Source of the DNA: Patescibacteria group bacterium
Lineage (GTDB): Bacteria; Patescibacteriota; Minisyncoccia; Phycocordibacterales; UBA9973
NCBI GenBank assembly: GCA_040384805.1
Contig: JAZKIP010000009.1
Coordinates: 1,490 to 65,489 of the forward strand
Direction: 5' to 3'
DNA length: 64,000 nucleotides
Shown piece by piece: positions 9,192 to 24,923 of the stretch; the first letter of the stretch is position 1; every line of letters starts with the position of its first letter. The position numbers were made by a program, and so were the translations under genes. Below the pieces are notes generated by a model. The model was given only the letters and a program-made list of their open reading frames with translations. It had not been told where the DNA came from and did no database searches.

Positions 9192-11306
9192 ATGAAGAAT
9201 TTATTTATATTTTCGATTCTCGGCTTGTTCTGTTTTTCATTTACATTTTTTTCACACACCGCCTTTGCGGCGACTGCGTCTCCGATTGCAACGGTAAATA
9301 TTCAAGACGCACAAATCGTTTCTCAAAACGGCAATGACCTTACTGTTTCCTTCACTCTAAGCAATCGTGAAGGAATGCAAACCGGCGTGAAGTACGGCAT
9401 CCAGCTTGTTTCCGAAACCAAGGCACAGAGGTCCATAGTAGATGAGAAAGTATATGATGAATCTCTGACGCTCAACGAGAACAGCAGTTTTAAGAAAGAA
9501 ATCACATACACTACGCCATCGTATCTAAATGGAGATTACTCTTTGTTTGTGACAAGCCGTAATGCGAGCGGGTTTCCGTTCGGGGTAGCTTTTGCAGGAA
9601 AAATCACCTTTTCCTCTTCCGTGAAAAGCTTTGATATCGTTGAGGATTCTTGTTATCTGAAGGTTGAGGGAGAGAAAAGCAATACTCGCTACGGTCTTCT
9701 TGAAGGAGTCGATATTTCACAGGAGGAAACTCTTCGGTTGACATGCAGCACTATGAACAACTCTCCTTCGGCGCTTTCATTGAGTCCTTCTTTTGAGACA
9801 CGATACCGCTCCTCATATGGAGAGATTGTCCCTGTGGCAGGAGGAGACACGATGCCTATTGCTTTTAAGGCCCTTAAGAAAGAAAATTTTTCCATACTTC
9901 TTCCAAAGGCAACTGCGCCTCAGCTCTATGACTTGAAAGTACTTCTTGCAAACGGACAAACTTTTTCGAATGCGGTTACTATTCGTTATTTTATCCGCGG
10001 GACAAGCGCGACGATACAAAATCTGACTTTGGATAAGGATTATTATACGGCAGGCGAAACGGCGTCACTTTCTCTTGTATGGACGCAATCGGGAAACACG
10101 TTCCTGCGAAATTCGACCACTGCTTTTACAAAGCCTCCCGTGGTTTTCCTCACAACAACTATTTCCGATTCTAAAGATAATGCATGCGTTGATCCTGCGA
10201 AACAAACTCTCGTTAGAAATCCTGCACAATCGAAGACAATCGTAACGATTCCTGTAACAGCACCATGCCGTGATCCGCATATAAATCTTGTTGTGGCTGA
10301 TGAATCGGGTACTATTCTTGATCAGAAAGAATTTTCTTTTACAACAAAGGACGAACCTATGGAACCGCAATCATCTCACAATGCTCGACTATGGCTGATT
10401 GTCGGCGTCGTTTTTCTTACCATAATCATCTTTATATATATGAAAAAGAGAAATAGCGCGAAAGATACAACAACTATTGTAAGAGCTGTGCTCCCTTTCT
10501 TCCTGTTTGCGGCAATGGGAGTGATGTTCTCATCGCATACCGCCTTTGCGGATACGTATGCCTCAGGCATTAATGGTGAAATTCTCTCAACGGTATCGAT
10601 AAATAACGGCTCACCATATGCTCCAGGGGATACCATCACTGTCACATCGTCGATAGTATCGAACGCGACTGTTCCAAGGCGCGTAAATCTCAAAGCAACA
10701 ACAATTGGCAATGCAACTCTCACCCTGATTCCGGATCAAGAAATTGGAGCGGGAGGCATGGTTCCGACTGTCTATGACGCTTTCGCCGCTCCCGGCGCGC
10801 CGTCTTCCCCGGGCTCGTATCTGGTGAGCTTTGTCACAGGTGTCGATGAAGTTGCACAGGGGATATATGTGAAAATTACATCGACAACAGCGGTTGGAGC
10901 AATACCGATGCGAACAAATGCGAATGGAGTTTGCCCTCAAGGTTATGGTATTGGTGACGGTAGCTACGGGGGAGACACATTTACGGGAGCGTGGCAGAAT
11001 TATGCTTATGAGCATGTGACAGAAACAGCTGATTTCTATAGTGACCCGGATGCCACTACCCCTCTTGATGTTGGCGGCTTAGGATTTAGACTGCTGCAGG
11101 GGAAAGTTTCAGATGAAGGAGGAATTTCTTCCGAAAGCCCGACTCCGATCGGAGGAGGGACATCGTATACGTATCAAGGAAGAAGCTTCGATGAAAGCTA
11201 TACGGATCAGTACGGATTTTCATCGTGCGACAAACAGCTCCATTATAGCGGCTATGTCACCTTAGATGGAACAAGCGCTCCGGTCCCTTATGTGCTCTTG
11301 CCATAA
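9192..11306 (+). CDS. large secreted/cell-surface protein; possible in-frame fusion of two tandem signal-peptide-bearing paralogs
   Basis: N-terminal signal peptide ...FFSHTAFA|ATASP. At about aa 400 there is a TM helix, then MKKRNSAKD followed by a second signal-peptide-like segment ending FSSHTAFA|DTYASG. Confidence 0.55.
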   Translation: MKNLFIFSILGLFCFSFTFFSHTAFAATASPIATVNIQDAQIVSQNGNDLTVSFTLSNREGMQTGVKYGIQLVSETKAQRSIVDEKVYDESLTLNENSSFKKEITYTTPSYLNGDYSLFVTSRNASGFPFGVAFAGKITFSSSVKSFDIVEDSCYLKVEGEKSNTRYGLLEGVDISQEETLRLTCSTMNNSPSALSLSPSFETRYRSSYGEIVPVAGGDTMPIAFKALKKENFSILLPKATAPQLYDLKVLLANGQTFSNAVTIRYFIRGTSATIQNLTLDKDYYTAGETASLSLVWTQSGNTFLRNSTTAFTKPPVVFLTTTISDSKDNACVDPAKQTLVRNPAQSKTIVTIPVTAPCRDPHINLVVADESGTILDQKEFSFTTKDEPMEPQSSHNARLWLIVGVVFLTIIIFIYMKKRNSAKDTTTIVRAVLPFFLFAAMGVMFSSHTAFADTYASGINGEILSTVSINNGSPYAPGDTITVTSSIVSNATVPRRVNLKATTIGNATLTLIPDQEIGAGGMVPTVYDAFAAPGAPSSPGSYLVSFVTGVDEVAQGIYVKITSTTAVGAIPMRTNANGVCPQGYGIGDGSYGGDTFTGAWQNYAYEHVTETADFYSDPDATTPLDVGGLGFRLLQGKVSDEGGISSESPTPIGGGTSYTYQGRSFDESYTDQYGFSSCDKQLHYSGYVTLDGTSAPVPYVLLP

Positions 11307-11366
11307 GGAGTGCGATGTCGCGCGCCGCATAATAATAGTCGCAATTAACAATTATCTTTTAAGAAT

Positions 11367-12662
11367 ATGAAAAAAAAGCTTCCTCTCAATCTTAAATATG
11401 TCAGTTTCATCTTTATTTTCGGACTTGCTTTCGGAGTGTCGCACTCGGCCTCCGCTGTATGGACGTACTATAATTATGAAATTCCTTACACTGTTGCGGT
11501 TACTCTTCCCAACATGGCTCCTGCGGTTGATGCAGGTCCGGATAAGACGATTACCCTTCCCGCATCTTCCGTGTCGATTACAGGCACGGCAATCGATTCG
11601 GATGGTACGATTGCAAGCACGCAATGGTTCCCGGGAGTGCGGGGACAGGTTCCTTATTCATTCTCGAGCCCTTCTTCTTTGACGACAACCGTAAGCGGAT
11701 TTACGTCCCCTGGCGTGTATGTGATTTATTTGAGTGCAACGGACAATCAGATGAATACGGGATCCGATACGATGCAGATAACAGTCGTCGCAGCTTCCGC
11801 TTCCGTAGATCTTGTTGCAGGCAGTGTCTCTCCGGATGCGGCGGCTCTCAATTCTCCGACCCATTTCTTTTCGACGATTACCAATATCGGCGGTACGGCA
11901 ACTCCGGCCGGGTTCTCTAGCTTCTTCCAAGTCGCAACGAGCGCGAATGGCACGGGCGCTGTTACTGATCTTGCCCCTTCGTCAATGAGAGCTCTCCCCT
12001 CAGGCGGGAATAGTACGATTACGTCCCCCTCATATACCTTTTCATCTGCCGGCACATACTCTGTCCGGGCGTGCGCAGATAAAAGTTCATCATCCAATAA
12101 CGGAGTTATTGCCGAGTCGCATGAAGACAATAATTGCAGCCAATGGACGAATGTCACAGTCGCTTCTCTCGTAGCACCCGTTAATGGAGTATGCGGTGAG
12201 AGCCACTACTACTGCACATTCGGCGCGAGCGCGAATAATTCGCAAGAGTCTTCATCGTGGACATGGATGTGTATCGGCTCAAATGGCGGATCCAATAGTT
12301 CATGTTTAGAAATGAATCCTCCCGGAGAGGTGGAACCTGGAGAACCTGAACAGCCAGGAGAACCGGGACAACCAGGAGAGCCCGGACAACCGGGAGAACC
12401 TGGCGATCCCGGGCAACCTGAACAGCCTGGAGAGCCTGAGCAACCCGGAGAACCAACCGGTCCGGGATCGGGGGGAGGAGGTACCACCGGGCCGGGTACG
12501 ACGACATATCAATGCAGTGACGGCAAGGACAATGATAATGATGGAAAGATCGATTACAAAGGAGAGCGTACTGCAAGTCCGGCAGGCGCGGGCGATCCGG
12601 GCTGTGCGAGCGGTCAAGACAATGATGAAAGGAATCTCACTCCTATATATATAGAAAATTAA
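11367..12662 (+). CDS. secreted protein with PKD-like domain, collagen-like PGEPGQ repeat and C-terminal MopE-like Cys/Asp-rich metal-binding motifs
   Basis: Signal peptide; VDAGPDKTITLPASSVSITGTAIDSDGTIASTQW (PKD signature); (P)GEPGQPGEPGQPGEPGD repeat at nt 12333..12440; CSDGKDNDNDGKIDY ... GCASGQDNDE. Confidence 0.6.
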   Translation: MKKKLPLNLKYVSFIFIFGLAFGVSHSASAVWTYYNYEIPYTVAVTLPNMAPAVDAGPDKTITLPASSVSITGTAIDSDGTIASTQWFPGVRGQVPYSFSSPSSLTTTVSGFTSPGVYVIYLSATDNQMNTGSDTMQITVVAASASVDLVAGSVSPDAAALNSPTHFFSTITNIGGTATPAGFSSFFQVATSANGTGAVTDLAPSSMRALPSGGNSTITSPSYTFSSAGTYSVRACADKSSSSNNGVIAESHEDNNCSQWTNVTVASLVAPVNGVCGESHYYCTFGASANNSQESSSWTWMCIGSNGGSNSSCLEMNPPGEVEPGEPEQPGEPGQPGEPGQPGEPGDPGQPEQPGEPEQPGEPTGPGSGGGGTTGPGTTTYQCSDGKDNDNDGKIDYKGERTASPAGAGDPGCASGQDNDERNLTPIYIEN

Positions 12663-12663
12663 G

Positions 12664-12713
12664 CAAACACAAACAAAAAAGACGGGTAAGCCCGTCTTTT
12701 TTGTTTGTGTTTG
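12664..12713. terminator. 50-bp perfect palindrome (CAAACACAAACAAAAAAGACGGG-TAA-GCCCGTCTTTTTTGTTTGTGTTTG), bidirectional terminator
   Basis: Perfect 23-bp arms verified by hand; the right end overlaps the -35 of the tuf promoter. Confidence 0.75.
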
Positions 12714-12738
12714 ACAATCTTTTTTAATTTGCTAGTAT
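12711..12738 (+). promoter_or_regulatory. sigma70-type promoter TTGACA-N16-TGcTAGTAT (tuf operon)
   Basis: Consensus -35 plus extended -10. A 32-bp block (12710..12741) is repeated exactly at 21068..21099. Confidence 0.7.
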
Positions 12739-12761
12739 GGAGGTCTATCGCAATATTTGCG

Positions 12762-12780
12762 TTCCGACTAGCGGTCGGAA
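12762..12780 (+). other. leader hairpin TTCCGAC-TAGCG-GTCGGAA in the tuf 5' UTR (CCGAC..GTCGG family)
   Basis: 7-bp perfect stem seen directly. Confidence 0.5.
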
Positions 12781-12864
12781 TTATTTATTAATAATTTATG
12801 TTGGTGTTAGTAATAGAACGGGGTTTCTCGTACGGTCTGTTATTAAAATCAACCAATAATTCAT

Positions 12865-14064
12865 ATGGCAGAAGAATTTAACAGAGACAAGCCACACGTC
12901 AATGTGGGTACGATCGGTCACGTCGACCATGGTAAAACCACGTTAACTGCGGCTATTTTGCAGGTCCTTTCCCGACAGGGAGGCGGATATGGAGCGAAAA
13001 TCAAGGGTGTCGACCAGATCGACTCAGCTCCTGAAGAAAAGGCTCGTGGTATTACGATCGCCCTTTCTCACAACGAGTACTGGACTCCAGCTCGTCACTA
13101 CGCTCACATTGATGCTCCGGGACACGCTGACTACATCAAGAACATGATCACGGGTGCCGCTCAGATGGACGGTGCTATCATTGTCGTTGCCGCAACTGAC
13201 GGCGTTATGCCTCAGACACGCGAGCACATCCTCCTTGCAAAGCAGGTTGGTGTTCCAAAGATCATCGTATTCCTCAACAAGTGCGACATGGTTGATGATC
13301 CTGATATGCTTGACCTCGTCGAAGAAGAAGTCCGTGAACTCCTTACAAAGCAGGGATTTGATGGCGCTAACTCTCCGGTTATCCGCGGTTCAGGCCTTAA
13401 AGCCCTTGAATCTGCTGATAACAACGACGAATGGGCGAAGAAGGTCCTTGATCTTGCGAATGCTCTTGATACATATATTCCAACACCGGAACGTGATGTG
13501 ACAAAGCCATTCCTTATGCCGATCGAAGATATCTTCTCAATTGAAGGACGCGGTACAGTTGTTACAGGTAAGATCGAACGCGGTATTGTCAAAGTCGGTG
13601 AAGAAGTTGAAATCGTCGGTATCAAGGATACAGCAAAGACGACTGTTACGGGTATTGAAATGTTCAACAAGAACCTCAAGGAAGGTATGGCTGGCGACAA
13701 TGCTGGTATCCTTATCCGCGGTATCAAGAAGGAAGACATCACTCGCGGTCAGGTTCTCTGCAAGCCGGGTACTGTAACTCCACATGCTGAATTTGAATGT
13801 GAGGTATACATCCTCAAGAAGGAAGAAGGCGGCCGACACACTCCATTCTTTACAGGTTACAAGCCTCAGTTCTACATCCGTACGACTGACGTAACGGGAG
13901 AATCAACGCTTCCAAGCGGAGTTGAAATGGTTATGCCGGGAGATACAGTCAAGCTCACAGTCAAGCTCGTTACTCCCGTCGCTCTTGAAGAGCAACAGCA
14001 CTTCGCGATCCGCGAAGGAGGCAAGACAGTCGGAGCAGGAGTCGTTACGAAGATAATCAAATAG
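12865..14064 (+). CDS. tuf: elongation factor Tu
   Basis: [22 protein letters not shown] and full-length EF-Tu similarity. Confidence 0.97.
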
Positions 14065-14120
14065 CGAACAGCGGAATAGATGAAAGCGTCTTTCGCTTCG
14101 TCGCCCCTGATCCCTACCAT

Positions 14121-14489
14121 ATGGCAACAACAGAATTAAAACCTAAAAAGAAGACGGTCAAGAAAGGAAAAGAAGACGGGACTCAGGTCCAGCTTCGTAT
14201 CCGTGTCCGAGCCTACGAGAACAAGATCCTTGACGCATCCGTCAAGCAGATCATTGATACGGCTCTTCGCTATGATGCGACGATTGTGGGACCGATCCCG
14301 CTTCCAACCGAGATCAAGAAATACACGGTAAACCGCGCATCCTTCGTTTTCAAGAATGCCCGCGAACAATTCGAGATCAGAATCCACAAGCGCGTCATCG
14401 ATATCCTCAATCCGAATCCGAAAACGATCGAAGCGCTGACAAATCTTTCACTCCCTTCGGGTGTGGATATCGACGTGAAGATGATGTAA
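14121..14489 (+). CDS. rpsJ: 30S ribosomal protein S10 (with a roughly 22-aa N-terminal extension)
   Basis: QLRIRVRAYENKILDAS... matches the S10 core. Confidence 0.9.
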   Translation: MATTELKPKKKTVKKGKEDGTQVQLRIRVRAYENKILDASVKQIIDTALRYDATIVGPIPLPTEIKKYTVNRASFVFKNAREQFEIRIHKRVIDILNPNPKTIEALTNLSLPSGVDIDVKMM

Positions 14490-14529
14490 GTGAAAATAAC
14501 GAGCAAGCAGGGAGATTATTTTCCTTATA

Positions 14530-14543
14530 CCGACCCGGGTCGG
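14530..14543 (+). other. perfect palindrome CCGACCCGGGTCGG in the rpsJ-rplC spacer
   Basis: Seen directly; member of the CCGAC..GTCGG family. Confidence 0.5.
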
Positions 14544-14588
14544 GATGCAGATTTTAAAAATCTCACTACGTTCAATTAAAAAATCAAC

Positions 14589-15224
14589 ATGAAATTTATT
14601 CTTGGTAAAAAACAGCATATGATGCAGTGCTTTGATGATAATGGCACGGTGATCCCAACGACTGTCATACAGGCGGGTCCCCTTGTCGTTACTCAAGTCA
14701 AAACTCCTGATACTGACGGCTACACCGCAGTGCAGGTTGCATACGACGAGCAGAAGGAATCGCGCGCGACAAAAGCGCATCTTGGCCATGTTCTGCCATC
14801 GAAGCAGGAAGGCAAAGAAGGCGCATCGACAATCGGAGCTTTCAAGCATCTGCGCGAATTCCGTGATATCGAGGAAATAACAGTCGGCGACCGCATCACC
14901 GTTTCGGCTTTTGCCAAGGGCGATATTGTCACTGTATCGGGCCTTTCAAAAGGAAAGGGATTCCAAGGTGTCGTGAAGCGTCATGGATTCCATGGTGGTC
15001 CGCGATCTCATGGACAGAAGCACTCTGAACGCGAGCCCGGATCAATCGGCGGCGGTCTTCGCAACAAGGTTCCAAAAGGGATGCGCATGGCAGGACGCAC
15101 AGGCGGCGATCGCATTACGATCAAGAATCTTGAGATCATCGGCGTTGATGTGGAGAACAATCAATTACTCGTTAAAGGCGCAATCCCTGGTCGCCGAGGT
15201 ACTTTAGTTGAAATAATCGGCTAA
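14589..15224 (+). CDS. rplC: 50S ribosomal protein L3
   Basis: GKGFQGVVKRHGFHGGPRSHG... L3 signature. Confidence 0.93.
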   Translation: MKFILGKKQHMMQCFDDNGTVIPTTVIQAGPLVVTQVKTPDTDGYTAVQVAYDEQKESRATKAHLGHVLPSKQEGKEGASTIGAFKHLREFRDIEEITVGDRITVSAFAKGDIVTVSGLSKGKGFQGVVKRHGFHGGPRSHGQKHSEREPGSIGGGLRNKVPKGMRMAGRTGGDRITIKNLEIIGVDVENNQLLVKGAIPGRRGTLVEIIG

Positions 15225-15227
15225 TAT

Positions 15228-15902
15228 ATGGAAACACAGATATACAATCAAAAAGGAAAGTCTGTCGGGAAGCTTGATCTTCCAAAGGAGATATTCGATC
15301 TTCCGTGGAATGCCGACCTTGTTCACCAGGTCGTGACAGCGATGCAGGCTAATGCCCGTACGCCTGTTGCTCACTCCCGTACGCGAGCGGAAGTCTCCGG
15401 AGGAGGACGCAAGCCATGGAAACAGAAAGGCACGGGACGCGCTCGTCACGGTTCATCACGTTCTCCGATCTGGAAAGGCGGCGGCGTGACTCACGGTCCG
15501 CGCAATGATAAGATCTATACGCAGAAAATAAACAAGAAGATGAGAGTCAAAGCGCTCTTTACTGTTTTATCCGAGAAGCTCCGGAAGGGTCAGGTTCTCT
15601 TTGTCGAGGAATTGTCACTCAAGAACATCAAGACCAAAGACGCGGTTGCAGTCATGAAGGATCTAAGCGTCGTGAAGGGATTTGAGAAAATCGTCGGCGG
15701 AAAGAAGCCCAATACATACATAACCGTTCCGGCTAAAAGCGATGTCCTAAAAAAGAGCTTTGCCAATATCCCGACGCTTGAAATCGACGAGGTTCGCAAT
15801 ATGAATCCGGTTGATCTTCTGTCATATCGATACGTTATTATTTCACAGCCTCAGGAAAGCATCGCATTCTTGGGCGGCAAGATAGAAAAGCCCCGATCAT
15901 AA
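15228..15902 (+). CDS. rplD: 50S ribosomal protein L4
   Basis: SGGGRKPWKQKGTGRARHGS... L4 signature. Confidence 0.93.
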   Translation: METQIYNQKGKSVGKLDLPKEIFDLPWNADLVHQVVTAMQANARTPVAHSRTRAEVSGGGRKPWKQKGTGRARHGSSRSPIWKGGGVTHGPRNDKIYTQKINKKMRVKALFTVLSEKLRKGQVLFVEELSLKNIKTKDAVAVMKDLSVVKGFEKIVGGKKPNTYITVPAKSDVLKKSFANIPTLEIDEVRNMNPVDLLSYRYVIISQPQESIAFLGGKIEKPRS

Positions 15903-15908
15903 TCGGGG

Positions 15909-15927
15909 TCCCGACGCGAGGTCGGGA
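15909..15927 (+). other. hairpin TCCCGAC-GCGAG-GTCGGGA in the rplD-rplW spacer
   Basis: Seen directly; CCGAC..GTCGG family. Confidence 0.5.
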
Positions 15928-15944
15928 TAAAATTAAGAATTTAT

Positions 15945-16286
15945 ATGGCAACGACAAAAGAAAAAAAGAATACAAAAGAGAAAAAAGAAGCTGCTGTTGT
16001 CGCCAAGAAAGGCGCATCGCATCCTCTTATTCTCGGTCCCCGCATAACTGAAAAGGGAGCAATCGGAGCGGAAAAAGGCATCTATACTTTTAACGTGAAA
16101 GAAAACGCGAACAAAAACGAGATCAAGAAAGCGATCACTATGCTCTACGGCGTGACTCCCGTCCGAATTTCGATCACGCAAGTGACAGACAAAGTTGTCT
16201 TTCGCGGCGGCGCATGGGGCACGAAGCACGGCGGCAAAAAGGCAGTCGTTCACTTGAAGAAAGGAGATAAAATAACATTTGCATAA
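15945..16286 (+). CDS. rplW: 50S ribosomal protein L23
   Basis: Lys-rich N-terminus followed by the L23 core (KGIYTFNVKENANKNEIKKAI...). Confidence 0.88.
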   Translation: MATTKEKKNTKEKKEAAVVAKKGASHPLILGPRITEKGAIGAEKGIYTFNVKENANKNEIKKAITMLYGVTPVRISITQVTDKVVFRGGAWGTKHGGKKAVVHLKKGDKITFA

Positions 16287-16293
16287 TACCTGT

Positions 16294-16317
16294 CCCGTTA
16301 GAAAATTAACTAACGGG
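16294..16317 (+). other. hairpin CCCGTTAG-AAAATTAA-CTAACGGG in the rplW-rplB spacer
   Basis: 8-bp perfect stem; the CCCGTTAG motif recurs elsewhere in the window. Confidence 0.5.
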
Positions 16318-16357
16318 GAAGAAAAATAAAACTTTAGTAATTAAATTTTTTAATGGG

Positions 16358-17209
16358 ATGAAGAGCTATAAACCAACAACACCATCGAAGCGCCATCAGA
16401 CAACGGTCTCATACCGCAACGTTTTGACGACCGACAAGCCGACAAAGTCTCTGACTCACGGTTTCAAGCGCGCGGTTGGCCGTAACAATCACGGCCGCAT
16501 CACGACGAGGCACAAGGGAGGCGGTCACAAGCGCCTGTATCGCGACGTTGACTTCATGTACAACAAACGCGATATTCCTGCGAAGATCTCAACGATTGAA
16601 TACGATCCGAACCGCAACGCATTCATCGGCCTTGCAGTCTATGCTGACGGCGAGAAGCGCTATGTCGTTGTTCCAAAATCAGTCAAAGTCGGCGATGCAT
16701 TCATGGTCGGCGAAAAGGCGCCGCTTACAACAGGCAACCGCCTCCCGCTCCGCCTTATTCCTGTCGGAACTTTTGTATACAATATCGAGATCAAGCCGGG
16801 CAACGGCGGAAAGCTCGCTCGAAGCGCGGGAACATTCGGTCAAGTCGTGGCAAACGACCTTGGATACACCAATATCAAGATGCCATCGACAGAAGTCCGC
16901 AAAGTGTCTGAGAACTGCTGGGCATGTATCGGCGAAGTCTCAAACTCCGAATTTCATCTTCAGAATTTCGGCAAGGCTGGCCGGTCACGCTGGAAGGGAA
17001 TCCGTCCGACAGTCCGCGGCTCTGCCATGAATCCGGTTGACCACCCATACGGAGGAGGCGAAGGCGCTCAGGGACGAGGCCTGCGACGCGCAAAGACAAT
17101 GTGGGGCAAGCCATCCGGCAAGGGACAGAAGACACGCACTCCGAAGAAATACTCGAACATGTGGGTTGTATCCCGCCGACGGGTTGGCAAGGCTAAAAAG
17201 ACTAAATAA
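16358..17209 (+). CDS. rplB: 50S ribosomal protein L2
   Basis: Full-length L2 similarity (GRNNHGRITTRHKGGGHKR...). Confidence 0.95.
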   Translation: MKSYKPTTPSKRHQTTVSYRNVLTTDKPTKSLTHGFKRAVGRNNHGRITTRHKGGGHKRLYRDVDFMYNKRDIPAKISTIEYDPNRNAFIGLAVYADGEKRYVVVPKSVKVGDAFMVGEKAPLTTGNRLPLRLIPVGTFVYNIEIKPGNGGKLARSAGTFGQVVANDLGYTNIKMPSTEVRKVSENCWACIGEVSNSEFHLQNFGKAGRSRWKGIRPTVRGSAMNPVDHPYGGGEGAQGRGLRRAKTMWGKPSGKGQKTRTPKKYSNMWVVSRRRVGKAKKTK

Positions 17210-17210
17210 C

Positions 17211-17249
17211 TTACAACAAAAAATACCCGTACGGGTATTTTTTGTTGTA
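17211..17249. terminator. 39-bp palindromic terminator ACAACAAAAAATACCCGTA|CGGGTATTTTTTGTTGT
   Basis: Perfect inverted repeat ending the tuf-rplB transcription unit. Confidence 0.75.
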
Positions 17250-17260
17250 TACTTGAATAT

Positions 17261-17650
17261 ATGAAAAAAATGACAGAACAAAAACGCTTTTCCCTGATCT
17301 CCCGCATCAAAAGCGCCAATAACGCATGGCGCGGCGTTCTGATTTTCATGCGGAGTACTCACAACGCATGGCTTCAGATATTCTTCGGTTTATTAGCTGT
17401 CTATCTTGGCTTTCTCCTGCATATCTCAAGCGTTGAATGGGTGCTCATCATATTCTGCATCGGATTCGTCATCTTGGCAGAAACTATCAATACGGCGATC
17501 GAGATCGATATTGATCTGACAAGTCCTACATATCATCCCTATGCGCGTGATACAAAGGATGTCGCCGCCGGAGCGGTATTGATCGTTGTTTTTATGGCTT
17601 CTCTCGTTGGTCTTATAATTTTTCTTCCAAAGATACTAGCTCTCCTGTAG
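17261..17650 (+). CDS. dgkA: diacylglycerol kinase / undecaprenol kinase family (DgkA)
   Basis: Three TM segments and the ETINTAIEIDIDLTSPTYHPYARDTKDVAAGAVL segment resemble DgkA. Confidence 0.65.
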   Translation: MKKMTEQKRFSLISRIKSANNAWRGVLIFMRSTHNAWLQIFFGLLAVYLGFLLHISSVEWVLIIFCIGFVILAETINTAIEIDIDLTSPTYHPYARDTKDVAAGAVLIVVFMASLVGLIIFLPKILALL

Positions 17651-17879
17651 AGGGGTTTTTGCAATACGGGGTATTCTTGCCCCAGGTGACCCTGTTCCAT
17701 GCGCGCTCGTGAATGAAATAAACGGCAAGACTGATTGAATTTGAAAGAATGACGATGATTGTCGACTTTTCAAGATCCTTCGTTACGAGATAGGCGACAC
17801 TGTAATCGATGCAGATGCTGATAAGCCGGTAGGCGATTGCCTTGGCAAGCGAGCGGTATCGTTTGTCTTTGTGGTGCAT
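17613..17879 (-). CDS. DUF2061-like small membrane protein
   Basis: RSLAKAIAYRLIS ... YFIHERAWNRVTWG resembles the DUF2061 consensus. Convergent with dgkA, overlapping it by 38 nt. Confidence 0.45.
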   Translation of the reverse strand: MHHKDKRYRSLAKAIAYRLISICIDYSVAYLVTKDLEKSTIIVILSNSISLAVYFIHERAWNRVTWGKNTPYCKNPSTGELVSLEEKL

Positions 17880-17985
17880 AGACGCATCATACTATAACTT
17901 ACATTCTTTCGCATCAGTTTATATAAAATAAAACGCTTTGTATTCCAATGAATGCAAAGCGTTTAGTATTTTCCAATTTCTTGTC

Positions 17986-18909
17986 TTAAGCCATACCCGT
18001 GATTCTATTGTATTCAAAGAGGTTATCTGTAATAATCTCTTTCCAATCATCCGGAGCAGGCTGCTTCTCACCCCACGGATGAGTTAATCCGCTGGACAAA
18101 TTCAGTCGTGCAAGGTTGACATCATACCCGGCGTTCTTCAAAGCCTCGTACACTTCTTTGGCGTCGCCGCCTTGTCCGCCAACTGACTTTTTGCCGATAC
18201 CGGGTATCAAAAGAGGTATCTCGACCCCTCCTTGGGTATAATCATAAGCAATTTGTTCAAGCTGTGTGAGCCATGTAGCTCCTACGACGGCACCGAGTCC
18301 GATATGATTTTTGGCGTTCTTTCTTATCCAGTCTGCTACACGCATGTAAACTAGGCTGCCATCTGTAGTCCCCAGCATTTCAAAATCATTCTTCCCTTCA
18401 TTTGAAGTCAGGTTTAAGACATAGACACCGCGATTTTCTGATGCTTTATCTGGTACATTGCAAAAGGGCAGCATTGAATCGCTTCCCATATATGGGGGAA
18501 TCGTTACCGCATCTGCATCCCAGAATTCAAAACCCTCAAGCATGTAATTTTCTGAAGATTTCAGAATATCTGCTTTCTTAAAATCCAAAATTGTAATCAT
18601 ACCCGGGAAATAAAGTTCGATGAGATCAAAGATCTTCGCAAGCACTATTAATCCTTCAAAATTCAAGTCTTTGGCTTTTCCGTGTTTTGAATAAAATCCC
18701 AGATTTGGCTTGAATGCCCCAGGAGCTACTTTTTGACTTGCCATGTAATCAAAAAGTTCTTCAAGCATGTCATAGAATCCTTTGATTCCACCTGAAATGA
18801 ATTTTTTGTGAAGAGTTGAAATTACAGGGTCGAGACCAAAGCAGATGATGCTTTTGTAGATCTGAGTAGTAATTTTAAGCAACTCGAGATAATTCATAGA
18901 TCTTTTCAT
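17986..18909 (-). CDS. pyrF: orotidine 5'-phosphate decarboxylase, type 2 (long form)
   Basis: CFGLDP, FKPNLGFY and Lys/Asp catalytic context typical of long-type OMP decarboxylase. Confidence 0.8.
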   Translation of the reverse strand: MKRSMNYLELLKITTQIYKSIICFGLDPVISTLHKKFISGGIKGFYDMLEELFDYMASQKVAPGAFKPNLGFYSKHGKAKDLNFEGLIVLAKIFDLIELYFPGMITILDFKKADILKSSENYMLEGFEFWDADAVTIPPYMGSDSMLPFCNVPDKASENRGVYVLNLTSNEGKNDFEMLGTTDGSLVYMRVADWIRKNAKNHIGLGAVVGATWLTQLEQIAYDYTQGGVEIPLLIPGIGKKSVGGQGGDAKEVYEALKNAGYDVNLARLNLSSGLTHPWGEKQPAPDDWKEIITDNLFEYNRITGMA

Positions 18910-19104
18910 TGTAAAGAGTTTAAGTGATGAATATTGTTTTTGTAAGAGAATTTTCCCTCATACTACAGCACCTTATGTTTTTGTCAAACTACGAAGGATT
19001 GCCTGTATTAGTGATGTTATTAAAATAACTAATATTTTCTTAGAAATTAAAAATGGAACAAAAAAACAGGACGAAATCGTTCCTGCTTTTTTATTTTTGC
19101 AAAA

Positions 19105-19704
19105 TTATTTTTCTGTTTTTTGTAAATTGTGTTTATGGTCCCAATTCTCCTGGTCAGACATCCATTCCCTCAGCATCTCTTCATTATTTTTATCGATGAA
19201 GCCATGGTCGATGGCGACAGAAAGAAGCTGTTCATAGTGAAGTAGGGAAATCACCATGCAAGGCTCTTTCAATTGCTCACCTTCCTCCTTACCAAACGGT
19301 ACGATACCCTTGAACATATCAACAGCCTTGGGTAAGCCGTAATTGAAGATAGACAAGCAATAGGGCACAATGCCTCTTGCATTGCGTACGGCCTGTACAG
19401 CTTTCGCGCTCGAACCTCCTGTTGAGATCAGGTCTTCAATCACGAGTACTCGTGATTTACCTAAATCCTTATTCGCGTCAATGCCCTCTATCTGGTTTCT
19501 TAAGCCATGGTCTTTGGGCTTGTCCCTGATGTAAGCCATCGGAAGTCCCATTGCATCAGCTAAAAGGATTGCGTAGGGAATTCCGGCAGTAGCAGTTCCT
19601 GCAATTGCATCAGGGTTGAAATGCTCAAAAACCTGTAGCTTTAGAATAATTTCCAGGAATCCATCGACTATCAATCGACGGTATTCGGGATACCAAAGAA
19701 ACAT
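19105..19704 (-). CDS. pyrE: orotate phosphoribosyltransferase
   Basis: PRTase PRPP-binding motif RVLVIEDLISTGGS. Confidence 0.85.
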   Translation of the reverse strand: MFLWYPEYRRLIVDGFLEIILKLQVFEHFNPDAIAGTATAGIPYAILLADAMGLPMAYIRDKPKDHGLRNQIEGIDANKDLGKSRVLVIEDLISTGGSSAKAVQAVRNARGIVPYCLSIFNYGLPKAVDMFKGIVPFGKEEGEQLKEPCMVISLLHYEQLLSVAIDHGFIDKNNEEMLREWMSDQENWDHKHNLQKTEK

Positions 19705-19966
19705 TCTATTATCGTTATATATGGGATTTAGTGTTCCTGACGCCCATAAAAAAGGCTTTGAAGGGTTGCCCCCATTTTGAGCCCGGCTAAAGCAAGCTTT
19801 TCACCGATTGCTGTGAGTTGGTTTATCATGTTTAGAGTTTTATTTTAAAAAATCAAGATTCTGTGCTTAATCCTACTGATTCGACCATTTTTGTCAAACA
19901 AAAAATCCTCCTAAAATAAGGGAGGATTTTAAATAGATACACCAGTCGTCATGGCAGTTACTTGTC

Positions 19967-20533
19967 CTATAAAAAAATACCATTCTTGTACAGCAGCTTG
20001 CCTAAGATCCAGAAATGAGTGATTTTAGGAAGTCGTGTCCCATCCTTTGCTCCTTTGTCCTTATCAGGCTTCAGATTTACAATCATCAGGTCGGCATAAT
20101 TGCCGACATCGATAGTACCTCGTCCTTCTATGTCGTGAGCGACTGCATGCGATTGTTTCGCAATTTCAATCAAAGACAGTTTTCCGCCTATCGTTTCATC
20201 GATCTCTTCGAGAACAGCCCTCAATGCCTTGCCGTTGGCTATCATCGTGAAGTAAAGTGATGCGGACAAAAGATACCTATTGGCGCCGTCAACAACTTCT
20301 GTACGGGTGATGTTTGCCGTATTTGACGGAAGAATAGCTGCTATTTTTTCGCCGCTGATTAAAACGTCCTTCCAGGATTCTCCTGTTTCTGTGATGAGTG
20401 TTATTTTTTGGAGGAGTGTAGCTCTTTGTGTTTTCAGAGATTTCACTAAAGTTTCTTTCATATACTTCGGTTTAAATTTACAATTTTTCTTTATTTTATT
20501 TTGGAAGTACGAATCTGGTAACCCTGAAGCCAT
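19967..20533 (-). CDS. amidohydrolase-superfamily composite (beta-sandwich) domain protein lacking the catalytic TIM barrel; possible dihydroorotase remnant
   Basis: N-terminal DVLISGEKIAAI...TEVVDGANRYLLSAS and C-terminal SLIEIAKQSHAVAHDIEGRGTIDVGNYADLMIVNL segments of amidohydrolases are present. No HxH barrel lies between them. Adjacent to pyrE/pyrF. Confidence 0.45.
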   Translation of the reverse strand: MASGLPDSYFQNKIKKNCKFKPKYMKETLVKSLKTQRATLLQKITLITETGESWKDVLISGEKIAAILPSNTANITRTEVVDGANRYLLSASLYFTMIANGKALRAVLEEIDETIGGKLSLIEIAKQSHAVAHDIEGRGTIDVGNYADLMIVNLKPDKDKGAKDGTRLPKITHFWILGKLLYKNGIFL

Positions 20534-20972
20534 TGCGCAGGCTATAGCCGAACCTTGTGCTGACTGTTTCTAGAGAGGGACGGAAAGCCATTATTTGAAC
20601 ATTAGGGAATTTCCATTTGAAAGGAAAAATAAAATAGCGCAGAGACCTCCTATAATGAACCATATTATGGATAGTATTAATCTTGCCTCCTGCAATGACG
20701 ATCAAGTATGGTTCGGAATAACGCAAATCATTACAGAGTTTTTGCATGAATTCTTTCCTGACTCTCTTGATTTCTTTTCCTCCATGAGGAGGAAGGTGAG
20801 CCGCAGTTATACTGTATATAGGATTAGTTTTGTCTTTTGTTTCCGAAAAGATAAAGACCCCAATACAACAGTAAAGGTTCGGTATAACCATGGGTTTCCA
20901 TTCCTCAGGCCCGAAATGCTGGGTTGTCCATCGAGCACGTTTGGTTTTTGAAAGATCTACTTTTATAGCCAT
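20496..20972 (-). CDS. hypothetical protein
   Basis: ORF upstream of the amidohydrolase-like gene with a 38-nt overlap. No recognisable motif; an alternative + strand ORF 20595..20951 is equally uninformative. Confidence 0.3.
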   Translation of the reverse strand: MAIKVDLSKTKRARWTTQHFGPEEWKPMVIPNLYCCIGVFIFSETKDKTNPIYSITAAHLPPHGGKEIKRVRKEFMQKLCNDLRYSEPYLIVIAGGKINTIHNMVHYRRSLRYFIFPFKWKFPNVQIMAFRPSLETVSTRFGYSLRNGFRVTRFVLPK

Positions 20973-21068
20973 ATATATTTGATTTTATTTTTTAAAAATA
21001 GGTTTTTCTAAACCTTACCTTATTTATTAAATATGTCAATGATCTTCTATATCTATAACCTTTATAAT

Positions 21069-21096
21069 TTGACAATCTTTTTTAATTTGCTAGTAT
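21069..21096 (+). promoter_or_regulatory. second exact copy of the TTGACA-N16-TGcTAGTAT promoter (rpsS operon)
   Basis: 21068..21099 is identical to 12710..12741. Confidence 0.7.
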
Positions 21097-21187
21097 GGAC
21101 GGACAAGGCTCTAGCGAGCTTATTTATATTGTATGACCCGCCTCCGCAAAACTACGGATGGGCAGGTGCGATATAGAAGAATTTATT

Positions 21188-21532
21188 ATGACAAGATCAC
21201 TCAAAAAAGGTCCATATGTTGATCCACGGCTGATGAAGAAAATTGCCGGCAAAAAGCCTATTCAAACAGGCCCGATCAAGACATGGTCGCGCGCATGCGT
21301 TATTCACCCTGATATGGTCGGATTCGTCTTTGCAGTCCATAATGGGAAGATTTTCATAGAAGTCCTAGTAACCGAGGACATGGTGGGTCATCGTCTCGGC
21401 GAATTCGCACAGACTCGCAAGTTCGTCCGACACGGAGGAAAGATGCAGAAAGAACTTGAGCAGAAGAAGAAAGAAGCCGAAATTACCGCCGCCAAGTCCG
21501 CCAAAGCAACAACCGATACGAAAAAGAAGTAA
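21188..21532 (+). CDS. rpsS: 30S ribosomal protein S19 (Lys-rich C-terminal extension)
   Basis: [12 protein letters not shown]... S19 signature. ORF track start 21158; internal ATG at 21188 preferred. Confidence 0.9.
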
Positions 21533-21542
21533 TATTTAGATC

Positions 21543-21977
21543 ATGAAAGCATTTCTTAAAAACTACAGACAGTCTCCCCGCAAGGTTCGCCTTGTAGCAG
21601 ACTTAATAAAAGGCAAAAGGGTTGCCGACGCTTTTGTTCAATTGAAATCCCTTCCAAAGCGCGCATCAGGGCCAGTTGAGAAGCTCCTTGCAGGCGCAGT
21701 TGCCAATGCCAAGCACGCAGGTGTCTCGACCGACAATCTGATCGTTTCAAACGTGACGGTCAATAAAGGAATTGTCATGAAACGCAGCATGCCCCGCGCC
21801 CGCGGTTCTGCATCACGCATCAACAAGCGAACGAGCCATATCATGCTTACTCTTATGGAAAATTCCGAAACGAAGAGCAAAAAGAAAACGGTAAAGCCGA
21901 AGAAGGAAGTGAAGGAGACTGGAGCAGAAAAGCCAAAAACCATTAAAACAAAAGCTAAAAAACAAGAAACACAGTAA
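21543..21977 (+). CDS. rplV: 50S ribosomal protein L22 (Lys-rich C-terminal tail)
   Basis: L22 core SPRKVRLVADLIKGKRVADA... Confidence 0.9.
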   Translation: MKAFLKNYRQSPRKVRLVADLIKGKRVADAFVQLKSLPKRASGPVEKLLAGAVANAKHAGVSTDNLIVSNVTVNKGIVMKRSMPRARGSASRINKRTSHIMLTLMENSETKSKKKTVKPKKEVKETGAEKPKTIKTKAKKQETQ

Positions 21978-21982
21978 ATTAT

Positions 21983-22678
21983 ATGTCAAAAGTCGTCCAT
22001 CCATATGCACATAGATTAGTAACCCTTCGTGATTGGAAATCACGCTGGTTTGCTGACAAGAAATACAAGGATCTGCTAGAGAGCGATGTTGTTATCCGTG
22101 CGTACCTTTCTAAAAAGCTCCGCGGATTCTACGTATCCCGCATCGAGATTGAACGAAACGCTAAGACGACAAAGGTCATGATCTTTACATCACGCCCGGG
22201 AATGATCATCGGCCGATCAGGCGAAGGAGCGGCAAAGCTCAAGAGCGATCTCTTGACCCTTATGGCCAAGAAAGGCATCAAAGCTGTCGAGGATTTCAAG
22301 CTCGACATTGTCGAAGTGACCAATCCCGATGCTGACGCTGCCATTGTTGCATGCTCCATTGCCGAAGGTCTTGAGAAGCGCCTTCCATACCGCCGCGTGA
22401 TAAAACAGGCGATCGAAAAGATCATGGCAGCGCGCGGAGTCAAAGGAGCTCGTATCTATCTTGGCGGCCGTCTTGCAGGAAGCGAAATTGCCCGCAGCGA
22501 GCAGATCAAGCGCGGTTCGATCCCGCTTCAGACATTCAGAGCAGACGTTGATTTTGCCCGTGAGAAGGCTCACATGAGCTACGGCGATATTGGTATTAAG
22601 GTATGGATCTACCGGGGCGAAGTCTTTTCAGCCCAAAGTCCATCAGGATCGGGCAGGAATGATCGCAATGATAAGTAA
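21983..22678 (+). CDS. rpsC: 30S ribosomal protein S3
   Basis: KH and S3-C domains (GRSGEGAAKLKSDL..., RRVIKQAIEKIMAARGVKGARI). Confidence 0.93.
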   Translation: MSKVVHPYAHRLVTLRDWKSRWFADKKYKDLLESDVVIRAYLSKKLRGFYVSRIEIERNAKTTKVMIFTSRPGMIIGRSGEGAAKLKSDLLTLMAKKGIKAVEDFKLDIVEVTNPDADAAIVACSIAEGLEKRLPYRRVIKQAIEKIMAARGVKGARIYLGGRLAGSEIARSEQIKRGSIPLQTFRADVDFAREKAHMSYGDIGIKVWIYRGEVFSAQSPSGSGRNDRNDK

Positions 22679-22689
22679 ATTACATTTTT

Positions 22690-23106
22690 ATGTTACTACC
22701 AAAGAAAGTAAAATTTAGAAAATGGCAGACAGGACGTACGGATATGTCGAAAGTGACACCGGATACGCGCGGTATTACCCTTGCCTTCGGATCATACGGT
22801 CTCAAAGCCACATCCGGCGGACGCGTTCGCTCCAATCAGATAGAATCAGCCCGCAAGGTGACATCACGAACAATCGGCAAAACAGGCCGTATGTGGATCC
22901 GCATCTTCCCTGACCGGCCGTTTACTGCAAAGCCTGCAGAAGTAGGAATGGGAAAGGGAAAAGGAGATCCTCAAGGATACTGTCTCGATGTCCGTCCCGG
23001 CCGCATGCTTTTTGAAGTCGATGGCGTACCTGAAGCGATTGCAAAGGAAGCCCTCCGCAAGGCGGGAACAAAATTACCAGTGACGACTCGTATTGTTGCT
23101 CGATAA
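22690..23106 (+). CDS. rplP: 50S ribosomal protein L16
   Basis: L16 core (KVTSRTIGKTGRMWIRIFPDRPFTAKPAEVGMGKGKG). Confidence 0.93.
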   Translation: MLLPKKVKFRKWQTGRTDMSKVTPDTRGITLAFGSYGLKATSGGRVRSNQIESARKVTSRTIGKTGRMWIRIFPDRPFTAKPAEVGMGKGKGDPQGYCLDVRPGRMLFEVDGVPEAIAKEALRKAGTKLPVTTRIVAR

Positions 23107-23128
23107 ACCTGCCTGCCGGCAGGCAGGT
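23107..23128 (+). repeat. 22-bp perfect palindrome ACCTGCCTGCCGGCAGGCAGGT filling the rplP-rpsQ gap, where rpmC normally sits
   Basis: Exact copy also at 26544..26565; related hairpins at 27661..27677 and 61519..61537. Confidence 0.7.
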
Positions 23129-23141
23129 ATAAATAAAATCA

Positions 23142-23387
23142 ATGAATACACAAAAGACACAATCAAAGAAAGTTCTCAAAGGAGTCGTTATTTCCGACAA
23201 GATGGACAAGACTATCGTTGTCGAGGTAACGCGCTTTGTCGAGCATTCCAAATACCAGAAGCGCATCAAGAAGTCGAAGAAATACAAGGCTCACGATGAA
23301 GACAATAGCAAGAAAGTCGGCGATATCGTAGAGATCGAAGAAACACGCCCGATTTCAAAGGATAAGAAATTTAAAGTAATCGCATAA
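23142..23387 (+). CDS. rpsQ: 30S ribosomal protein S17
   Basis: [22 protein letters not shown]... S17 signature. Confidence 0.9.
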
Positions 23388-23394
23388 TACATAT

Positions 23395-23766
23395 ATGATT
23401 CAAGACGGAACAATAGTAAAGATCGCGGACAACGCCGGAGGAAAGATCGGCAAGGTCTTCAAGGTGCTTGGATCATCAAAGCGCCGCTATGCCGGCATTG
23501 GCGACAGGGTCATCATCTCTGTGAAGATCGCCGAACCGCGCAAGGGTGTCAAGAAGAAGGATGTCCACCAGGCTGTCGTTGTCCGCACCGTAAAGGCATT
23601 CCGCCGCAAGGACGGATCATATATCCGCTTTGATGACAACGCTGTCGTGATCCTCGAAAAGGACAAGCAGGATCCTAAGGGCGGCCGTGTTTTCGGGCCG
23701 ATCCCGCGCGAGATGGCAGACCGCGGATATCAGAAGATCATTTCGCTTGCGCAGGAGGTAATTTAG
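23395..23766 (+). CDS. rplN: 50S ribosomal protein L14
   Basis: MIQDGTIVKIADNAGGK... L14 signature. Confidence 0.93.
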   Translation: MIQDGTIVKIADNAGGKIGKVFKVLGSSKRRYAGIGDRVIISVKIAEPRKGVKKKDVHQAVVVRTVKAFRRKDGSYIRFDDNAVVILEKDKQDPKGGRVFGPIPREMADRGYQKIISLAQEVI

Positions 23767-23770
23767 AAAA

Positions 23771-23950
23771 ATAATGAAGCGAAGCGGAATATATTTTTCT
23801 AAATCCGCCATACAAATTTATTGATTATAGTTAAGAGGTGTGATAGGGTGATATAAGTTTTATAACATACAAGGAATATTTGAAGTAATAAATAAATTTG
23901 GGGCGGATAACGATTTTTATAGTCGTTCCTCCTTAAAAATCAGTCATATG
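23771..23950 (+). repeat. 180-bp element, copy 1 (rplN-rplX spacer, ends with the rplX ATG)
   Basis: Identical to 24163..24342 on base-by-base comparison. Confidence 0.85.
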
Positions 23951-24163
23951 CATATCAAAAAAGGAGACAATGTAATAGTTATAACAGGCGACAGCAAGGG
24001 CAAGAAGGGCAAGGTCCTTCGCATGCTTCCGAAGGAAGGCAAGGTCATCGTCGAAGGCATCAACGTACGTAAGAAGACCCGCAAGTCGCGCACGAAGGGA
24101 GAAGCAAGCCAAATCATCGAGCTTGCGATGCCTATTCATGCATCAAATGTCAGGAAGGGATGA
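23948..24163 (+). CDS. rplX: 50S ribosomal protein L24
   Basis: KOW motif IKKGDNVIVITGDSKGKKGKV. Confidence 0.85.
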   Translation: MHIKKGDNVIVITGDSKGKKGKVLRMLPKEGKVIVEGINVRKKTRKSRTKGEASQIIELAMPIHASNVRKG

Positions 24164-24342
24164 TAATGAAGCGAAGCGGAATATATTTTTCTAAATCCGC
24201 CATACAAATTTATTGATTATAGTTAAGAGGTGTGATAGGGTGATATAAGTTTTATAACATACAAGGAATATTTGAAGTAATAAATAAATTTGGGGCGGAT
24301 AACGATTTTTATAGTCGTTCCTCCTTAAAAATCAGTCATATG
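24163..24342 (+). repeat. 180-bp element, copy 2 (rplX-rplE spacer, ends with the rplE ATG)
   Basis: Identical to 23771..23950. Confidence 0.85.
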
Positions 24343-24879
24343 GAAACAGTCAAACAAAAAGAAAATAAGGCACTTGGTACGCTTAAAGACAAGTACGGCT
24401 ACAAGAACAAAATGGCTGCGCCTCACTTGGTCAAAGTTGTCGTTGCGTCAGGAACAGGAAGCGGCGTCAAGCGCGACAAGGATCGCAACAAATTCGTAAC
24501 AGAGCGCCTTGCAAAGATCACCGGCCAGAAGCCTGCAGTCAGGGGAGCAAAGAAATCAATCGCGAGCTTTAAGATGCGTCAGGGCGACCCGATCGGGGTC
24601 ATGGTGACTCTCCGCGGCGCGCGCATGTACGGATTCCTCGACAAGCTTATCAATGTCGCTATTCCCCGCACAAAGGACTTCCGCGGCATCGAGCGAAAGA
24701 TCGTCGACAATATCGGCAATCTGACAATGAGCATCAAGGAGCATACGATCTTCCCGGAAACAGGCGATGAAGAGTTCAAAGATGTCTTCGGTCTTGCAAT
24801 AACGATCGTCACAACCGCAAAGAACAAACAGGAAGCAACAGACTTCTTCGAACAAATAGGAATTCCATTCAAGAAATAA
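24340..24879 (+). CDS. rplE: 50S ribosomal protein L5
   Basis: L5 core (ITGQKPAVRGAKKSIASFKMRQGDPIG...). Confidence 0.93.
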   Translation: METVKQKENKALGTLKDKYGYKNKMAAPHLVKVVVASGTGSGVKRDKDRNKFVTERLAKITGQKPAVRGAKKSIASFKMRQGDPIGVMVTLRGARMYGFLDKLINVAIPRTKDFRGIERKIVDNIGNLTMSIKEHTIFPETGDEEFKDVFGLAITIVTTAKNKQEATDFFEQIGIPFKK

Positions 24880-24890
24880 AAATTATATTA

Positions 24891-24916: not shown

Positions 24917-24923
24917 ATATTGT

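Follow-up and report, generated by a model that had tools for sequence, protein, structure and literature searches.

Few known gene neighbourhoods are as stable as that of rplB and rpsS. In E. coli the two genes abut (gene order quoted in PMC13001810). In the 64,000-nt stretch of contig JAZKIP010000009.1 analysed here (the window) they lie 3978 bp apart, separated by a terminator, six open reading frames (ORFs) and a full promoter, and the core of that promoter is identical to the core promoter of tuf at the head of the same ribosomal-protein cluster. The locus raises two questions: when and how the S10 series came apart, and why its two leading promoters are the same. An earlier note on this DNA answered both at once, with a promoter duplication, by recombination or transposition, that split the supercluster. 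The answer we favour, at a probability of about 0.72, is that the split is ancestral and clade-wide, that the cluster is divided into at least three promoted and terminated units, that cargo genes entered later, and that the two promoters were homogenised recently over a short tract.

The related set comprises loci, taken with 10-kb flanks, from the 80 nearest genomes of a species-representative (GTDB) collection; the window proteins were located in them by tblastn. All 80 come from metagenome-assembled genomes (MAGs) of Paceibacteria, Nomurabacteria or Parcubacteria, with RplB proteins 69–91% identical to that of the window; loci at 79–91% are called the close clade. An exact-protein look-up added further close relatives, including L082 (RplB 92% identical) and L081, for 83 related loci in all (L plus a number), and a protein search with RplB listed relatives at an identity of at least 83%. 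Genes were identified with Pfam and NCBIfam and known RNA families with Rfam at gathering thresholds. The window bacterium is a Paceibacteria/Nomurabacteria-type bacterium of the candidate phyla radiation (CPR).

Pfam and NCBIfam agree with the gene series given in the earlier note (tuf-rpsJ-rplC-rplD-rplW-rplB, dgkA, DUF2061, pyrF, pyrE, two ORFs, rpsS through rplP), and the S10 series does break off after rplB, at a terminator, to resume with rpsS behind a full consensus promoter (Table 1). The interruption is shared by the relatives. Canonically adjacent rplB and rpsS were found in none of the related loci; the gap measures 83–7340 bp in the ~60 loci that show both genes, and rpsS is absent within 10 kb of rplB in 6 loci. 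The gene order from tuf to rplB is identical in 83/83 related loci. A terminator hairpin stands just after rplB in 61 of 78 relatives, and nearly all loci carry, ahead of rpsS, a promoter of the family seen in the window (57–80 nt away, a few up to 192 nt), also where the gap is free of cargo. Loci such as L026, L036, L038 and L050 have no inserted gene at all, the whole gap consisting of terminator and promoter.

The shared promoter core, TTTGACAATCTTTTTTAATTTGCTAGTATGGA, occurs exactly twice in the window, both times on the + strand (12710–12741 and 21068–21099), base for base as described before, and the identity between both sites ends sharply at each edge of the 32-mer. A search of the 64-kb window found no third copy at up to 3 mismatches, and 100 shuffles gave 0 matches. 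Both sites fit a sigma-70/sigma-A-type extended −10 promoter, defined by −35 TTGACA, a spacer of 16–18 nt, TG at −15/−14 and a −10 hexamer with A second and T sixth: they read TTGACA, a 16-nt T-rich spacer ending in TG-C (the extended −10), TAGTAT and GGA. About 60 relatives keep this architecture at both positions. We built a position weight matrix (PWM) from 118 promoters of the relatives; it holds 38 bits, with a conserved T-rich spacer and ATTTG ahead of the −10. Over the window only the tuf promoter (P_tuf) and the rpsS promoter (P_rpsS) score above 14 bits, the remaining window promoters (pyrF, pyrE, rpsN) having the two hexamers in common with the 32-mer and a different spacer. A scan of both strands of 1.3 Mb of related loci with this matrix, trained on the sites that it later re-found, returned 59 sites upstream of tuf, 58 upstream of rpsS, 2 more at contig ends where rpsS is expected, 1 upstream of rpsN and none other.

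The surroundings of the two sites are conserved too. Side-by-side comparison places the window's rpsS promoter directly before the close-clade leader (CGGAC(G)AGCTC, a 4–5-nt loop, GAGCTTATTTATATTGT and ATG), as in relatives, and the tuf promoter likewise adjoins conserved tuf leader blocks in window and relatives alike. A PKD-type gene upstream of tuf is also present in L006, L008, L017 and L019, and dgkA, DUF2061 and pyr genes stand upstream of rpsS in L020, L082 and others. Judged by these flanks, neither copy of the 32-mer occupies a new location. Because the promoters are orthologous, the leaders conserved and some split loci free of cargo, the split is older than this genome and not the product of a promoter-carrying insertion. 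The simplest history places the origin of the rplB|rpsS break, terminator then promoter, in the ancestor of the whole sampled clade.

A second cut, between rplE and rpsN, shows the same design. The window has a predicted terminator after rplE followed by a predicted promoter, P3 (Table 1); rplE and rpsN are at least 162 nt apart in 48/48 relatives that show both (median 862, maximum 4257 nt), and 44 of these 48 have a P3-type promoter. The tuf-S10-spc cluster would run as at least three units across the clade.

A recent insertion and an assembly artefact are two rival explanations. Recent recombination or transposition could have put a 3.9-kb segment, with a copy of the tuf promoter, into an intact S10 operon in this genome; the exact 32-bp identity would follow, the cargo has a G+C content of 0.40 against 0.48–0.50 in the flanking ribosomal genes, and most cargo genes lie on the opposite strand. 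We nevertheless hold such an insertion to be very improbable. Split, terminator and rpsS promoter recur in essentially all relatives, even cargo-free ones, the promoter adjoins the conserved rpsS leader at its orthologous site, relatives carry cargo genes at the same junction, and identity stops at the promoter edges with no flank carried along. No transposase or integrase was found among the six gap ORFs with Pfam and NCBIfam, and no terminal inverted repeats or target-site duplication in 16900–21400, only terminator palindromes and short chance matches. A truly empty site was not found in close relatives; the cargo-free loci keep terminator and promoter. The insertion origin proposed in the earlier note does not survive this synteny comparison, which puts the split before this genome; what remains of its promoter duplication is the likelihood of some copying, not the splitting of a supercluster that is divided throughout the clade, at orthologous promoters and with no mobile element. 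An assembly artefact could underlie the identity or the arrangement, if contigs were joined chimerically or the assembler took a wrong path at a short repeat. The sequence comes from a MAG contig in a single assembly, and the same cluster contains an exact 180-nt repeat, a structure that assemblers can mishandle; exact look-ups with RplB, RpsS and a 100%-identical database entry (P0001) returned no contig that would be a second assembly of the species, and the exact 32-mer had 0 matches in Joint Genome Institute (JGI) metagenome contigs, where PyrF has no close relative. Both flanks of both 32-mer copies, however, match the gene order in independent assemblies of related species, the expected conserved leaders follow both promoters, and at 32 bp the repeat falls below the length of the larger k-mers and of the reads normally used. 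An artefact is highly unlikely, and with it the chimeric join at the 32-mer that had been raised as a caveat.

The identity of the two promoters calls for an explanation of its own. Given the family consensus, the chance of 32/32 identity is 4e-7 to 1e-6 (PWM from relatives, independent positions). The 44 within-genome pairs of relatives differ at 3–14 of 32 positions, and 0 of 1892 cross-genome pairs of a tuf with an rpsS promoter are identical, the closest having 1 mismatch. The pair in L082, the nearest relative, has 6 mismatches, and the window 32-mer has 5 mismatches to P_rpsS of L082 and 9 to its P_tuf. At positions 8, 10, 16 and 17 the window copies share states that are unusual among the closest relatives. 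Copying is likely, because 32/32 is too good for chance even with a shared promoter consensus, and the identity would be best explained by copying that took place once this genome had diverged from the sampled relatives. The two sites would already have been ~80–90% alike, and that only across the promoter, so that any short tract of conversion or template switching would stop where the promoter stops, in line with the sharp boundaries. Within-genome pairs of the close clade average 6.1 mismatches against 7.4 when permuted (p = 0.001), which fits occasional homogenisation and, equally well, co-adaptation to one polymerase.

Several points weigh against ancestral splitting followed by recent copying. 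The matrix was trained on the very sites it re-finds, so that only the lack of other matches is informative; promoters, terminators and the absence of read-through are predictions; and a single MAG contig is the only source of the exact 32-mer. The chance estimate treats the positions as independent and the sequences as unrelated, the distant clade shows a weak pair effect (9.7 mismatches against 10.0, p = 0.098), and a conversion of ~32 bp without flanking homology would be unusually short. The direction of copying can be read either way: positions 7 and 29 are tuf-like compared with most close relatives, and the nearest promoters are those of rpsS in L082 and L029. The window 32-mer resembles distant-clade tuf promoters (TTTGACAATGTTTTTTAATTTGCTA..., 3 mismatches) as well as the L029 rpsS promoter (2 mismatches). 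Moreover, selection for one optimal core promoter at the two most highly expressed ribosomal-protein units could yield the same identity with no copying at all. The family is strongly constrained, down to its spacer, and limited to these two operon heads; the identity covers exactly the functional promoter, from −36 to the discriminator; and within-genome pairs of the close clade are slightly more alike than between-genome pairs. Selection alone nonetheless seems unlikely, as ~10 positions are free in relatives, which gives full identity a probability of ~1e-6, the relatives' own pairs never come under 3 mismatches, no cross-genome pair is identical, and positions 8, 10, 16 and 17 would require four parallel changes per site. 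We also regard as doubtful a broader proposal, in which the operon has been cut for good into separately controlled units, and recurrent short-tract conversion (concerted evolution of the 32-bp element, with the 32/32 of the window as its extreme) and autoregulation through the rpsS hairpin, replacing the L4 and S8 controls lost with the cut, together restore stoichiometry; the autoregulatory half would use the 5' hairpin AGCUC-loop-GAGCU and its U-run, where the rpsS mRNA begins, as the target of a protein of the rpsS-rplE unit.

Under the ancestral-split reading with recent homogenisation, unit 1 (tuf to rplB) would start at P_tuf and stop at the rplB terminator, unit 2 (rpsS to rplE) would start at P_rpsS and stop after rplE, and unit 3 (rpsN onward) would start at P3. 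The ancestor of the clade would already have had the order rplB-terminator-promoter-rpsS, with genes gathered later between terminator and promoter, a gap that would have taken up genes repeatedly because the space between a terminator and a promoter interrupts no transcript. Its fillers would be, in the close clade, dgkA with its own −10 promoter and then a pyrF/pyrE/pyrC/pyrD cluster that is decaying here, and in others toxin-antitoxin or orphan genes. P_tuf and P_rpsS would be members of one promoter family that heads only these two operons within 10 kb of the cluster, and would have become identical recently in this genome, most likely through gene conversion or a template switch over a short tract. 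Matching core promoters would give equal initiation and keep the S10 halves in balance; we infer this balance, as we do the start sites, termination and conversion, from sequence features whose positions and conservation are observed.

Table 1. Features of the tuf-S10 region, in window coordinates, with the evidence for each
Feature	Position	Strand	Evidence and remarks
Terminator hairpin of upstream PKD-domain gene	12666–12711	+	predicted; −35.6 kcal/mol, z = −9.8
P_tuf core promoter (32-mer copy 1)	12710–12741	+	predicted; orthologues 100–260 nt upstream of tuf in ~60 relatives
Structured tuf 5' leader	12742–12864	+	predicted fold, z = −3.4; clade-conserved blocks AATCGCA..TGCG, ATTTATTAATAATTTATGTTGGT, ATCAACCAATAA
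Transcription unit 1	12865–17209	+	Pfam; predicted unit
tuf	12865–14064	+	Pfam
rpsJ (ORF)	14121–14489	+	Pfam
rplC	14589–15224	+	Pfam
rplD	15228–15902	+	Pfam
rplW	15945–16286	+	Pfam
rplB	16358–17209	+	Pfam
Bidirectional-type intrinsic terminator after rplB	17212–17249	.	predicted; A-tract, perfect 17-bp stem, 4-nt loop, T-tract
−10-type element TATACT	17248–17253	+	7 nt before dgkA ATG
dgkA (prokaryotic diacylglycerol kinase family)	17261–17650	+	Pfam PF01219, 8e-31
DUF2061 membrane protein	17613–17879	-	convergent with dgkA, 38-nt overlap; same arrangement in L020, L082, L083
pyrF terminator hairpin	17931–17964		predicted
pyrF (orotidine monophosphate decarboxylase, subfamily 2)	17986–18909	-	apparently intact; TIGR02127, 121 bits vs cutoff 110.6
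pyrF promoter	18960–18987	-	predicted
pyrE-like orotate phosphoribosyltransferase	19105–19704	-	N-terminally short; NF001729, 111 bits vs 245; below equivalog cutoffs
Promoter-like site ahead of pyrE-like gene	19870–19897	-	
pyrC (dihydroorotase) remnant	19967–20533	-	NCBIfam dihydroorotase, 2.8e-8, 33 bits vs cutoff 535
Conserved hypothetical protein, 158 aa	20496–20972	-	L082 has a 164-aa orthologue at this junction (44% identical over 156 aa, 9e-40)
P_rpsS core promoter (32-mer copy 2)	21068–21099	+	predicted; orthologous position, directly 5' of conserved rpsS leader
Conserved rpsS leader hairpin	21105–21131	+	AAGGCTC-TAGC-GAGCTT and T-rich run; no Shine-Dalgarno sequence
Genome-specific 55-nt insertion at ancestral rpsS start	21132–21192	+	TATGAC, 49 nt, TATGAC direct repeat
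Transcription unit 2	21188–24879	+	Pfam; predicted unit
rpsS	21188–21532	+	Pfam
rplV	21543–21977	+	Pfam
rpsC	21983–22678	+	Pfam
rplP	22690–23106	+	Pfam
rpsQ	23142–23387	+	Pfam
rplN	23395–23766	+	Pfam
rplX	23948–24163	+	Pfam
rplE	24340–24879	+	Pfam
Terminator hairpin after rplE	24884–24919	+	predicted; −23.3 kcal/mol
Promoter P3	24924–24952	+	predicted; TTGACA, 17 nt with TG, TAGTAT; 110 nt before rpsN (25062)

The cargo of the gap is largely that of the lineage. dgkA occupies the rplB–rpsS gap in 23 of the 80 GTDB loci and in 24 of the 25 close-clade loci with a visible rpsS; within the close clade it comes just after rplB, and the rest of the gap varies, from nothing more (gaps of 528–1200 bp) to orphan ORFs. 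Homologues of pyrF, pyrE, pyrC and pyrD occupy the junction in L001, L002, L004, L011, L020, L024 and L029. Counted over genomes, dgkA is found there in 23, pyrE in 9, pyrF in 7 and pyrC and pyrD in 3 each. DUF2061 and the 158-aa ORF are also at the junction in L020 and L082, the L082 gap containing dgkA, DUF2061 and two small ORFs. The module before dgkA (hairpin, TTTTTGTTGTATA(A/C)T, 5–8 nt, ATG) recurs in most relatives shown, wherever dgkA sits, even 0.5–1.7 kb from rplB. This suggests that dgkA has its own −10-only promoter on the terminator T-tract and gives an almost leaderless mRNA.

The pyrimidine genes of the window are in varying states. The match of the pyrE-like protein begins at profile position 52. 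The pyrC remnant aligns by BLASTP with PyrC of L002 in two blocks (residues 56–89 with 22–55, and 103–187 with 340–439), so that N-terminal and C-terminal segments are retained and ~285 catalytic-barrel residues are gone. The ORF at 20496–20972 has no Pfam or NCBIfam match; we rejected it as a pyrD remnant, as it shows no similarity to the PyrD-like proteins of relatives, and with its L082 orthologue it is a real gene and not debris. Both ORFs had been called degenerate, a description that fits the internally deleted pyrC and not its neighbour. Taken together, the 3.9 kb combine a dgkA module typical of the lineage with a pyrimidine-synthesis cluster in partial decay. Such decay fits the reductive evolution known for these bacteria. 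Elsewhere, L081 has a YafQ/ParE-type toxin module between rplB and rpsS (10966–11722) and a HicA-type toxin among the genes between rplE and rpsN (15416–18378). Both cluster cuts appear, from these toxin-antitoxin-type genes, to accept selfish modules.

The palindrome that closes unit 1, given as a 39-bp terminator before, is 38 nt long and stands as a strong terminator hairpin (−22.7 kcal/mol, z = −7.3). At the other end of the unit, the 3' arm of the upstream gene's terminator shares 2 bases (12710–12711) with the start of the tuf 32-mer. A GTTGGT/ATCAAC helix in the tuf leader surrounds a variable hairpin. Rfam found only transfer-messenger RNA and one transfer RNA (tRNA) in the whole window, and neither the tuf nor the rpsS leader matches a family; the tuf leader is a candidate lineage-specific cis-regulatory RNA. 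An L4-responsive S10 leader of the E. coli type was not detected upstream of rpsJ, and no Rfam ribosomal-protein leader reached its gathering score in the window; a lineage-specific equivalent may exist. Leaders of the E. coli type are reported to be narrowly distributed (PMC3616713). The PKD/CARDB-domain protein encoded upstream of tuf (ORF 11367–12662) contains at least 13 tandem 9-nt units at 12315–12472, which encode a collagen-like Gly-Glu/Gln-Pro stretch near its C-terminus.

The start of rpsS is at 21188 and not at the first ATG of the ORF, at 21158, and P_rpsS is ~84 nt ahead of this start codon in the present genome. The stem of the intervening leader hairpin, AGCTC-N4-5-GAGCT with its T-run, is nearly invariant in 54 sequences (alignment A1). 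The stem hardly varies, so covariation says little, and an RNA hairpin and a palindromic DNA operator are equally possible. The element could stabilise the 5' end, act as an attenuator or as a palindromic DNA operator, or bind a ribosomal protein. Downstream of it, where relatives read ...TATTGTATGACAAGATCA, the 55-nt insertion has put the old ATG (21133) out of frame, and the ATG in use, at 21188, comes from its second repeat. The fold of the insert covers the old AUG (z = −3.0), and no further copy of the insert was found in the window or the related loci.

Unit 2 and the genes beyond it have further peculiarities. rpmC (L29) is missing at the junction of rplP (end 23106) and rpsQ (start 23142); neither the window nor any close-clade locus has it, and 35 more distant loci have it at that junction; rpmD (L30) is absent between rpsE and rplO (27189–27199). 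An exact 180-nt direct repeat (23771–23950 and 24163–24342) accounts for all of the intergenic DNA ahead of rplX and, a second time, ahead of rplE; both copies finish in the start codon of the next gene, at junctions that in relatives mostly measure 8–35 nt. Partial homologues occur in L069 and L035 ahead of rplN and in L007 right behind rplX, and the fold of the repeat is unexceptional (z = −0.7). It could be a mobile leader/ribosome-binding-site cassette or an assembly loop. An identical 24-nt palindrome, AACCTGCCTGCCGGCAGGCAGGTA, fills the rplP/rpsQ gap (23106–23129) and the rplR/rpsE gap (26543–26566); L005 has it as well, between rplD and rplW, and L041 has a similar palindrome. It looks like a small hairpin element, akin to repetitive extragenic palindromic (REP) sequences, that would target intergenic sites of the ribosomal cluster. 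Far from the cluster, the window contains a tRNA-Ile gene with anticodon TAT (62690–62764). The AUA codon is read in most bacteria by a CAU tRNA carrying lysidine, and the gene may reflect an unusual decoding arrangement.

The clade offers a natural experiment in ribosomal-protein stoichiometry after loss of co-transcription. It has a practical side as well: binning and phylogeny of CPR genomes usually build on 16 syntenic ribosomal proteins, and the assumption that they form a syntenic block at the contig level can fail here. The same loci supply predicted native promoter, leader and terminator modules, the promoters probably very strong, for a group without genetic tools.

Compared with the canonical S10 operon, the cluster has the same genes in the same order and orientation, with tuf in front as in many bacteria. 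It differs in being cut at rplB|rpsS and rplE|rpsN by terminator and promoter, and not at the E. coli boundary rpsQ|rplN, in having non-ribosomal genes in the cuts, and in the absence of rpmC and rpmD. The S10-spc-alpha region of B. subtilis has internal promoters and terminators within long ribosomal-protein clusters. There, too, a large ribosomal cluster has more than one sigma-A/sigma-70-type promoter, whereas the units of the present clade are separated by strong predicted terminators, headed by near-copy promoters and flanked by variable cargo at the junctions. Concerted evolution by gene conversion is familiar from duplicate tuf genes and rRNA operons. As in those cases, the copies within the genome are closer to each other than either is to the orthologue of the nearest relative; the object here, in contrast, is a 32-bp regulatory element without flanking homology, far shorter than the usual tracts, and the conversion is a matter of inference. 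Genomic islets and insertion hot spots likewise combine fixed core flanks with species-variable content (dgkA, pyr, toxin-antitoxin and orphan genes in our case), but this site has no integrase, tRNA target or repeat boundary and lies inside a normally highly conserved operon. A literature search found no description of this split in CPR bacteria, though such a silence does not prove novelty. That internal promoters can subdivide ribosomal clusters is already known; what differs here is the combination of two fixed, non-canonical cuts, insulation by strong predicted terminators, variable non-ribosomal cargo and a pair of sister promoters restricted to the two leading units.

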